Shown here: positions 26,001 to 26,514 of the stretch, piece after piece
Layout: every line of letters begins with the position of its first letter
How positions within the stretch are numbered: position 1 is the stretch's first letter
Source of the DNA: Octopus vulgaris
Taxonomy: Eukaryota
Length of the DNA: 64,000 nucleotides
Reading direction: 5' to 3'
Assembly: GCA_951406725.2 (NCBI GenBank)
Contig: OX597831.1
Location: forward strand, 73,036,001 to 73,100,000
The notes under the pieces: model-generated
What the model was told of the DNA's origin: nothing
The model's database searches: none
What the model saw: only the letters and a program-made list of their open reading frames with translations
Program-made: the position numbers and the translations under genes

Positions 26001-26006
<6 letters not shown>

Positions 26007-26509
26007 GTTATCGCCATACTAATATGGCATTCTTATAAAAATAAGAAAAAAGCTGTCCGCTTATTAGCTCCATGAGGCCATCGCCTTAAGTTAGCTATTT
26101 GATACACAAACTGTATCCATATAACCTTCGAACAAGGGAGGTCAGTCGCTCCACACTACTTGACCGGCAGCTACAGACGCGTTTCGGGGTATTGCCCCTT
26201 TTCAATGCAGCGTAGCCAGCCAGTAGGTGTCGCTTCCGACAATCTCTGTTCGATGGTTTTATTTACCTAGTTTCGGTGGAATACATCCACTTGTTTTCAA
26301 TAATAGAAATATTAAAATAACTAAGTCTCTAAGGTTATATGGATACAGTTTGTGTATCAAATAGCTAACTTAAGGCGATGGCCTCATGGAGCTAATAAGC
26401 GGACAGCTTTTTTCTTATTTTTATAAGAATGCCATATTAGTATGGCGATAACTATTATTTTCCGGGAACGCTGCCGCTGTTCTCTTTTAGAGAGACTTAG
26501 TTATTTTAA

Positions 26510-26514
<5 letters not shown>
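26001..26514. mobile_element. Penelope-like/retrozyme-like fold-back in (TA)n
   Basis: 128-bp inverted arms 26001-26128 / 26331-26458; 24-bp inverted copy of the tail end 26307-26330 / 26491-26514; hammerhead in the spacer. Confidence 0.8.
26170..26211 (-). ncRNA. Minimal type I hammerhead motif, U3-A8 variant, GUC triplet
   Basis: Minus: GCTGCA-TTGAAAA-GGGG CAATA CCCC-GAAA-CGCG-TC-TGTAGC; 6-bp helix I, 4-bp helix II, palindromic ACGCGT helix III. Confidence 0.75.

Follow-up and report, generated by a model that had tools for sequence, protein, structure and literature searches.

Background

Metazoan non-LTR retrozymes are hammerhead-bearing repeats that include the 350-390-bp repeats of mussel and Rtz331/353 of the axolotl, and both their mobilization by Penelope-like elements (PLEs) and the use of a circle as template have been proposed (PMC7229834). 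PLE-driven mobilization has also been argued from phylogeny, with the mechanism listed as open (10.64898/2026.07.22.740005). PLEs themselves leave characteristic traces: a truncated copy in inverted orientation, a tail on one side only and a preference for (TA)n (PMC8557442). The tail corresponds to the stretch between two reverse transcription start sites, and a predicted Penelope dimer would cut and extend both strands; the origin of the tail and of the inverted copies is given there as unresolved beyond the first step (PMC11167929). A further relevant group comprises the target-specific LINEs of the Tx1 clade, such as Tx1L in Tx1D, Keno in U2 and Tx1-Mar (PMC4494074).

Here we describe an octopus repeat that can be compared with these groups. 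Like the metazoan non-LTR retrozymes, it has a type I hammerhead, a non-coding tandem unit within the range of 170-400 nt, a GC content under 45% (here 41.7%) and a self-paired fold, and its ribozyme is predicted to be dimeric, as in axolotl; it differs from them in its U3-A8 core and in its dispersed two-armed insertions with fixed ends in (TA)n (PMC7229834). The octopus unit thus displays every testable feature of this group, its circular form being presumed. With the PLEs (Neptune/Naiad, PMC8557442; anole Poseidon, PMC11167929) it shares the inverted 5'-truncated copy, the tail at one end, two reverse transcription start sites, AT-rich or (TA)n targets and a hammerhead in the repeat, but it has no ORF, and its tail measures 63 nt rather than 30-40. 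Vertebrate retrozymes have likewise been viewed as PLE derivatives, that is, as non-autonomous PLE passengers (10.64898/2026.07.22.740005). In that case the argument is from co-occurrence and pLTR similarity (Li, Clavereau, Pollet 2026), Xenopus retrozymes often matching Penelope pLTRs (10.64898/2026.07.22.740005), whereas in octopus it is from the anatomy of the insertions. The non-autonomous Chlamys elements, e.g. MRC1, resemble the octopus unit as PLE passengers that form head-to-tail multimers; they generally share 3' sequence with autonomous families, a match not found for the octopus unit, and the available part of their description claims no circle (PMC8557442).

Non-LTR retrozymes, the idea that they are PLE passengers, and Tx1 families that target other transposons (PMC4494074) are therefore already known; what is new here is evidence from insertion anatomy for a Penelope-type mechanism of retrozyme spread. 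We found no description of the octopus system in the literature outside most subscription journals and Repbase, and the words inverted, microsatellite, octopus and cephalopod are absent from the main text of PMC7229834.

Results and discussion

Organization of the locus

The window, i.e. the whole 64,000-nt stretch of octopus DNA that was analyzed, contains a copy of a young hammerhead retrozyme with a non-coding unit of 362 nt; the insertion has two arms and is 5'-truncated (Table 1). We number the unit M1-362, with segments X, Y, Z and W at 1-128, 129-160, 161-184 and 185-362. The minus-strand X (26128-26001) matches the plus-strand X (26331-26458) at 128/128 positions and the minus-strand Z (26330-26307) matches the plus-strand Z (26491-26514) at 24/24, which, with a Y of 32 nt and a W of 178 nt, gives an X-Y-Z-W circle of 362 nt, exactly the anatomy drawn in the preliminary description. 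The left arm has its 3' end at initiation site A, the end common to most family copies, and the right arm stops at the lower margin of site B, for which the family mode is M191. The 5' ends of the two arms are 160 nt apart, and each arm has sequence that is absent from the other. The longest frame on the unit circle has 55 codons from stop to stop and 38 from ATG, in agreement with the earlier assertion that the unit has no coding capacity.

Table 1. Features of the retrozyme insertion and of associated elements; positions without a prefix are those of the window
Feature	Position	Strand	Remarks
Left arm	26001..26330	-	330 nt: M161 to 362, then 1 to 128 (Z-W-X)
Right arm	26331..26514	+	184 nt, M1-184 (X-Y-Z)
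Penelope-type 'tail', sites A to B	26459..26514	+	56 nt here; 63 nt in most copies
Predicted type I hammerhead, U3-A8, palindromic helix III	26170..26211	-	motif, fold, covariation
Extended helix I hairpin around ribozyme	26146..26236	-	compensatory changes between subfamilies
L1/Tx1-type LINE target (M255-270)	26221..26236	-	unoccupied in window copy; possible transcription start
Motif resembling element upstream of U1/U2 snRNA genes (putative promoter)	26282..26291	-	55 nt before LINE target
(TA)n target, left flank	25975..26000	.	sequence
(TA)n target, right flank	26515..26552	.	sequence
Two Penelope-like families	L167:604-6640; L226-L228		frames of 1312 and at least 1025 codons
Young LINE in retrozyme, with five-copy tandem cluster	L101:3501-8860; L107-L127; G000:C2:73.04-73.07 Mb		

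The predicted ribozyme

The hammerhead occupies M280-321. Its C17 is M315, which corresponds to position 26176 on the minus strand of the window, and cleavage is predicted between 26176 and 26175. It is composed of a 6-bp helix I with one G-U pair, the core UUGAAAA (U3, A8), a 4-bp helix II, GAAA, the palindromic ACGCGU and GUC. Our analysis reproduced the placement first proposed for it (26211-26170, minus strand), along with the U3-A8 core, the GUC triplet and the palindromic helix III; U3-A8 is a described hammerhead variant (PMC4209133). The call rests on motif, fold and covariation, the Rfam search having returned no hammerhead match, with only (TA/CA)n microRNA artefacts and sub-threshold matches. 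In the predicted fold, helices I and II form with a probability near 1, and helix III of the monomer, which would need a 2-nt loop, has a probability of 0; the unconstrained minimum-energy fold of the dimer is a double hammerhead joined through the ACGCGU palindromes. Both sides are changed in 3 of 29 predicted pairs among 10 representative variants, a covariation that is modest evidence as the variants are related sequences. The core is intact in 287/312 passes, with U3-A8 always retained and N7 variable. The fold of the circular unit reaches -155.9 kcal/mol, compared with -114.1 +/- 5.6 in 100 shuffles (z = -7.5). The unit is thus predicted to carry a type I hammerhead that would act as a double hammerhead in the dimer. 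Dimer-dependent cleavage that spares monomeric circles has been described (PMC4209133); in vitro, 8/9 Xenopus retrozyme dimers failed to cleave (10.64898/2026.07.22.740005).

In L236 (near 4934) and L237 (near 4917) a hammerhead-like U3-A8 motif stands alone between unrelated flanks; both motifs share the palindromic helix III of the unit and possibly represent other, older ribozyme families.

Family size, age and subfamilies

A query spanning the Z-W junction recovered 1590 candidates in the octopus genome, of which the 40 best-scored are all 100% identical over 202 nt. This identity indicates that the junction, which the preliminary description allowed might be absent from other genomic copies, is the norm of the family and not a chance event. 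The exact 30-nt hammerhead core occurs 892 times genome-wide (control 0) and a looser core 1782 times (control 13), both being counts of motifs and not of loci; the helix II type of the 362-nt family is present in 97 of the first 100 looser-core matches listed. Tandem copies, for which a search had been suggested, are common at a spacing of 362 nt, forming head-to-tail multimers across the genome. For closer analysis we used a main set of 59 loci, all chosen by the exact 30-nt core, out of 64 distinct loci from the first 100 core matches in genome order; five loci on C2 were left out. At 24 of the 59 loci one arm holds at least two hammerheads, and the largest arrays reach about 8 units. The median identity of arms to the window unit is 98.5%. 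Subfamilies exist at 78-89% identity, including subfamily 2 (85% identical; 30 loci, one repeating L093), in which the period is 364 instead of 362.

The retrozyme is therefore dispersed, recently mobile and without LTR structure, and its young copies, numbering in the hundreds, make up a family of 362-base mobile repeats that encode no protein. Its identification as a retrozyme was borne out by the motif, fold and covariation of the hammerhead, by the 362-nt tandem unit and by its dispersal. As to the circular monomer of the preliminary description, the 362-nt unit and its normal Z-W junction stood, but the circle is a reconstruction: the window copy holds one hammerhead, so that release of a unit-length monomer in cis is impossible. 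A near-identical unit was also noticed in contigs labelled as four other organisms (X10, X16, X17, X19).

Insertion anatomy: two arms with fixed ends

The main set comprises 39 two-armed loci, arranged head-to-head with the 3' ends outward, and 20 loci with a single orientation. The 3' ends of arms fall at site A (about M128) or site B (about M191), 63 nt apart. With windows for A and B that were defined after inspection of L001-L030 and one copy listing, 57 of 69 two-armed loci overall pair one A with one B, none (0/69) is A/A or B/B, and the remaining 12 have one or both ends elsewhere. This pattern recurs in the genome-order set (A/B 34/39, A/A 0, B/B 0, other 5), in subfamily 2 (A/B at 18/21 two-armed loci) and in older copies (A/B at 5/9), the latter two likewise having no A/A and no B/B. 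Since both sites terminate in CTATTAT in the main family, primer pairing alone would be unable to choose between them. Insertions are mostly in (TA)n, with TA-rich flanks at 66/78 arms. Among the seven two-armed loci with other flanks, target duplications measure 12-14 nt in four, 5 nt in two and 6 nt in one, and the 12-14-nt duplications indicate that both arms derive from one event. Overlaps at the arm junctions are mostly 2-6 nt.

The term fold-back, applied to the locus at the outset, implies that a cDNA copied itself, or that an inverted duplication at the DNA level made the second arm. The perfect identity of the two X copies would suit such an origin, as would a small hairpin at M354-4 that coincides with several junctions. 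However, the 5' ends are separated by 20 nt or less in 3/37 simple two-armed loci, against 4.2 expected by chance, and are 160 nt apart in the window copy; moreover, arm lengths are uncorrelated (rho -0.01), and the arms of the window copy each carry sequence missing from the other. We accordingly consider a fold-back origin extremely improbable and, for the family as a whole, largely refuted, though a few single loci may fit it. Two cDNAs, each with its own priming event, are the best reading of the arms.

Probable Penelope-type mobilization and candidate enzymes

The A/B ends, the one-sided tail, the inverted truncated copy and the (TA)n target all back the Penelope-type mobilization suggested in the preliminary description, and from these sequence features we judge it very probable. 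The strict pairing of one A with one B differs from the behavior of the anole enzyme in vitro, where start sites are equal between strands (PMC11167929). The octopus genome also holds candidate sources of the enzyme. One young and abundant Penelope-like family has open frames of 1310-1312 codons; its 1312-codon element is intact, is present in a great many nearly identical copies and seems to have been active recently. In this family A is paired with B at 4/4 two-armed loci, the tail measures 56 nt and the flanks or targets are (TA)n. In a second Penelope-like family, with a frame of at least 1025 codons, 3 loci show two end sites separated by about 63 nt. A protein recorded under Octopus vulgaris is a relative, at 99% identity, of a Penelope-like protein encoded in the genome, in keeping with the cephalopod family proposed in the preliminary description. 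The writer enzyme is likely to be a Penelope-like (Neptune-type) RT-endonuclease acting in trans.

Among the three PLE groups sampled, in which only the best candidates were compared, we found no DNA similarity to the unit, no homologous pLTR and no autonomous partner sharing sequence with it, a result that counts against the proposed mobilization. Three divergent hammerhead-like sites (L236-L238) have neither similarity to the unit nor a PLE frame; twenty loci chosen by the promoter-like motif are all older family members with no autonomous partner among them, and a 4.6-kb-spaced pair within these yielded LINE fragments only. The Penelope-like protein had no match in a PDB search and no matching family in Pfam. 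The alternative that Z normally continues into an RT/GIY-YIG ORF, raised at the outset, also found no counterpart: no such frame continues from the retrozyme in any copy examined (frames were listed for the long loci), the arms terminate in (TA)n or unique flank, and the long frames beside arrays are LINE-type or separate insertions.

One template, probably circular

The two arms are concordant at lineage-defining sites in 34/34 informative genome-order loci, where about 50% would be expected if they were independent; in a wider set of 48 loci the single apparent discordance, in L009, is due to a short third segment. Variants present in at least three loci occupy all passes of a locus in 140/165 cases, two-locus variants in 7/40 and private variants in 11/112, some of the last extending over four passes and both arms. 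Of the 25/165 mixed cases among shared variants, 12 are at five CpG-context sites and the rest elsewhere. The 44 loci with full coverage display at least 13 haplotype patterns, and each pattern is uniform throughout its own array. The cleavage-site region (M311-320) shows 1 indel over 157 passes. Fixation of RNA editing into copies was rejected as a source of variants, since A>G changes are not in excess: they account for 5 of the 35 distinct homogeneous variants, and G>A changes for 11.

The positions of 5' ends were compared after removing crossings forced by selection, the raw figure of 77/101 arms crossing the cleavage site being selection-biased. Unforced 5' ends at M311-323 number 9 against 2.3 expected (P 6e-4), with about 62 passes arriving; those at the putative start M250-260 number 2 against 3.2 and are not enriched; those at M354-9 number 15 against 4.1, a stronger cluster than that at the cleavage site, so that stalling of the reverse transcriptase at structure could also explain the latter. 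We read this pattern as mostly closed templates plus some cut ones.

The shared haplotype of both arms and the scarless passes over the cleavage site fit a single circular template, and we infer that both arms were copied from one RNA molecule, probably a circle. A linear template used by the same Penelope-type twin priming, either an uncleaved multimer or a linear monomer re-entered by homologous jumps, would need no circle, and appears unlikely to us. In its favor, RNA that had not been processed served the anole enzyme as template in vitro (PMC11167929), multi-hammerhead arms and long arrays exist as noted above, and the circle in RNA is deduced. Homogeneous multimers could also be obtained by seamless homologous jumps on linear RNA or from homogeneous source arrays, and autonomous Penelope elements make partial tandems too. 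All 8 contig sets of unrecorded type show the 362-nt return joint, a joint that genomic tandems give as well and to which we therefore attach no weight. Against a linear template, the homogeneous haplotype patterns would require a monomer bottleneck at each step, private variants fill all passes of both arms at L009, L095 and L099, the cleavage site bears no scar, and 5' ends show no excess at the putative start. On balance a circular template for the insertions is the likely reading.

The guest LINE and a putative promoter

A 5.36-kb LINE with a CCHC ORF1 and an APE-RT ORF2 is found inside some retrozyme copies. Its domains (APE, RT, zf-RVT and the ORF1 CCHC) fit the L1/Tx1 type, and it is presumably a Tx1 element. 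M255 follows the LINE 3' end in 20 of 30 loci (from 36 matches); these 20, five of which form one tandem cluster, are all the LINE copies of at least 98% identity, as against 0/10 older copies. Among 13 of these 20 loci, inspected at the LINE 5' end, 11 (one truncated) keep a duplication to M269-270 and 2 have target deletions. In L186 the other arm carries a second, 69-nt insertion at the M255 site. The LINE hosts belong to different retrozyme haplotypes, which indicates that the LINE insertions were independent. Like the Tx1-clade LINEs, this guest APE-RT LINE occupies one site of a multicopy element and shows tandem re-insertion; unlike them, it has a retrozyme as its target, and its older relatives touch U1 starts (PMC4494074).

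A LINE that is young and physically associated with the retrozyme might itself be its mobilizer, or else the unit might have spread as a satellite through recombination. Yet the LINE, truncated copies included, lies with a 16-nt duplication within complete two-armed retrozyme insertions, which makes it a guest; the retrozyme ends are fixed at A/B and lack poly(A), and its copies are dispersed, with mostly short arrays. Either origin is accordingly very hard to sustain beside Penelope-type mobilization.

Of the older LINE relatives, one has a full U1 gene (Rfam) after it and another has a U1-like start before it. The sequence AGTGGATGTA stands 55 nt before M255 in the retrozyme, the same place at which U2 has AGTGGGTGTA and U1 has AGTG. 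When the match is anchored by position, it lies at -61, where -60 would be expected, and takes second rank among 724 positions; when 14-mers were compared with the DNA upstream of U2 without such an anchor, the result did not exceed that of shuffles (139/300). These resemblances hint that an snRNA-type promoter may precede M255. Such a promoter has been reported for newt satellite 2 (cited in PMC2220036).

Separately, more than 20 U1 snRNA genes are clustered at G000:C18:48.97-49.21 Mb, and an older LINE copy is flanked by U2 genes (L194:1101-1294; L130:2151-2344). A 610-codon open frame at L106:4351-6180 (-) presumably resembles a hAT-type transposase.

A proposed cycle

Taken together, the locus is probably a two-armed retrozyme insertion, likely made in trans by a Penelope-like (Neptune-type) enzyme from one RNA, which would probably be a circle. 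A cycle with presumed cleavage, ligation, enzyme and promoter would link the unit, the multimers, the A/B rule, the target and the arm concordance observed in the genome. Tandem arrays would be transcribed, possibly from the internal snRNA-type promoter. Pairing between the ACGCGU palindromes of two adjacent hammerheads would then form a double hammerhead and free the 362-nt monomer, which a host ligase might close into a circle. The enzyme would cut both (TA)n strands; on a single RNA, synthesis would be primed at A by one DNA end and at B by the other, and each cDNA would be extended backwards along the unit, making as many as several turns. Finally, the two cDNAs might be joined head-to-head through short microhomology.

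A more ambitious version, which we put forward tentatively and with somewhat more doubt than belief, has the ribozyme-made circle as the direct template of a dimeric Penelope enzyme with fixed starts 63 nt apart on one molecule, one per strand, and the snRNA-type promoter of the unit parasitized by a LINE lineage that had left U1 genes. If true, circle and dimeric enzyme would explain the Penelope tail, the inverted copies and the tandem arrays in one step, and the Penelope element, the retrozyme and the LINE would form a three-tier system. A family so young, small and ORF-free affords sharp predictions: synthesis should start at M128 on one strand and at M191 on the other, M315 should be cleaved in the dimer alone, and a circle should yield multimeric cDNA. 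The intact Penelope-like ORF in the same genome provides material for testing them.

Neighboring repeats in the window

Another inverted two-armed element, at 26551-28561, directly adjoins the (TA)n of the retrozyme. Its outer 143 nt are 100% complementary, and its arms are about 700 nt long, with a value of 86% overall. Relatives occur in L064, L001, L199 and L236, and the element may be a further terminal repeat of Penelope type. Upstream of the retrozyme, at 24109-24926, lies a direct repeat with a period of about 410 nt (families D7, D12, D13, D17).
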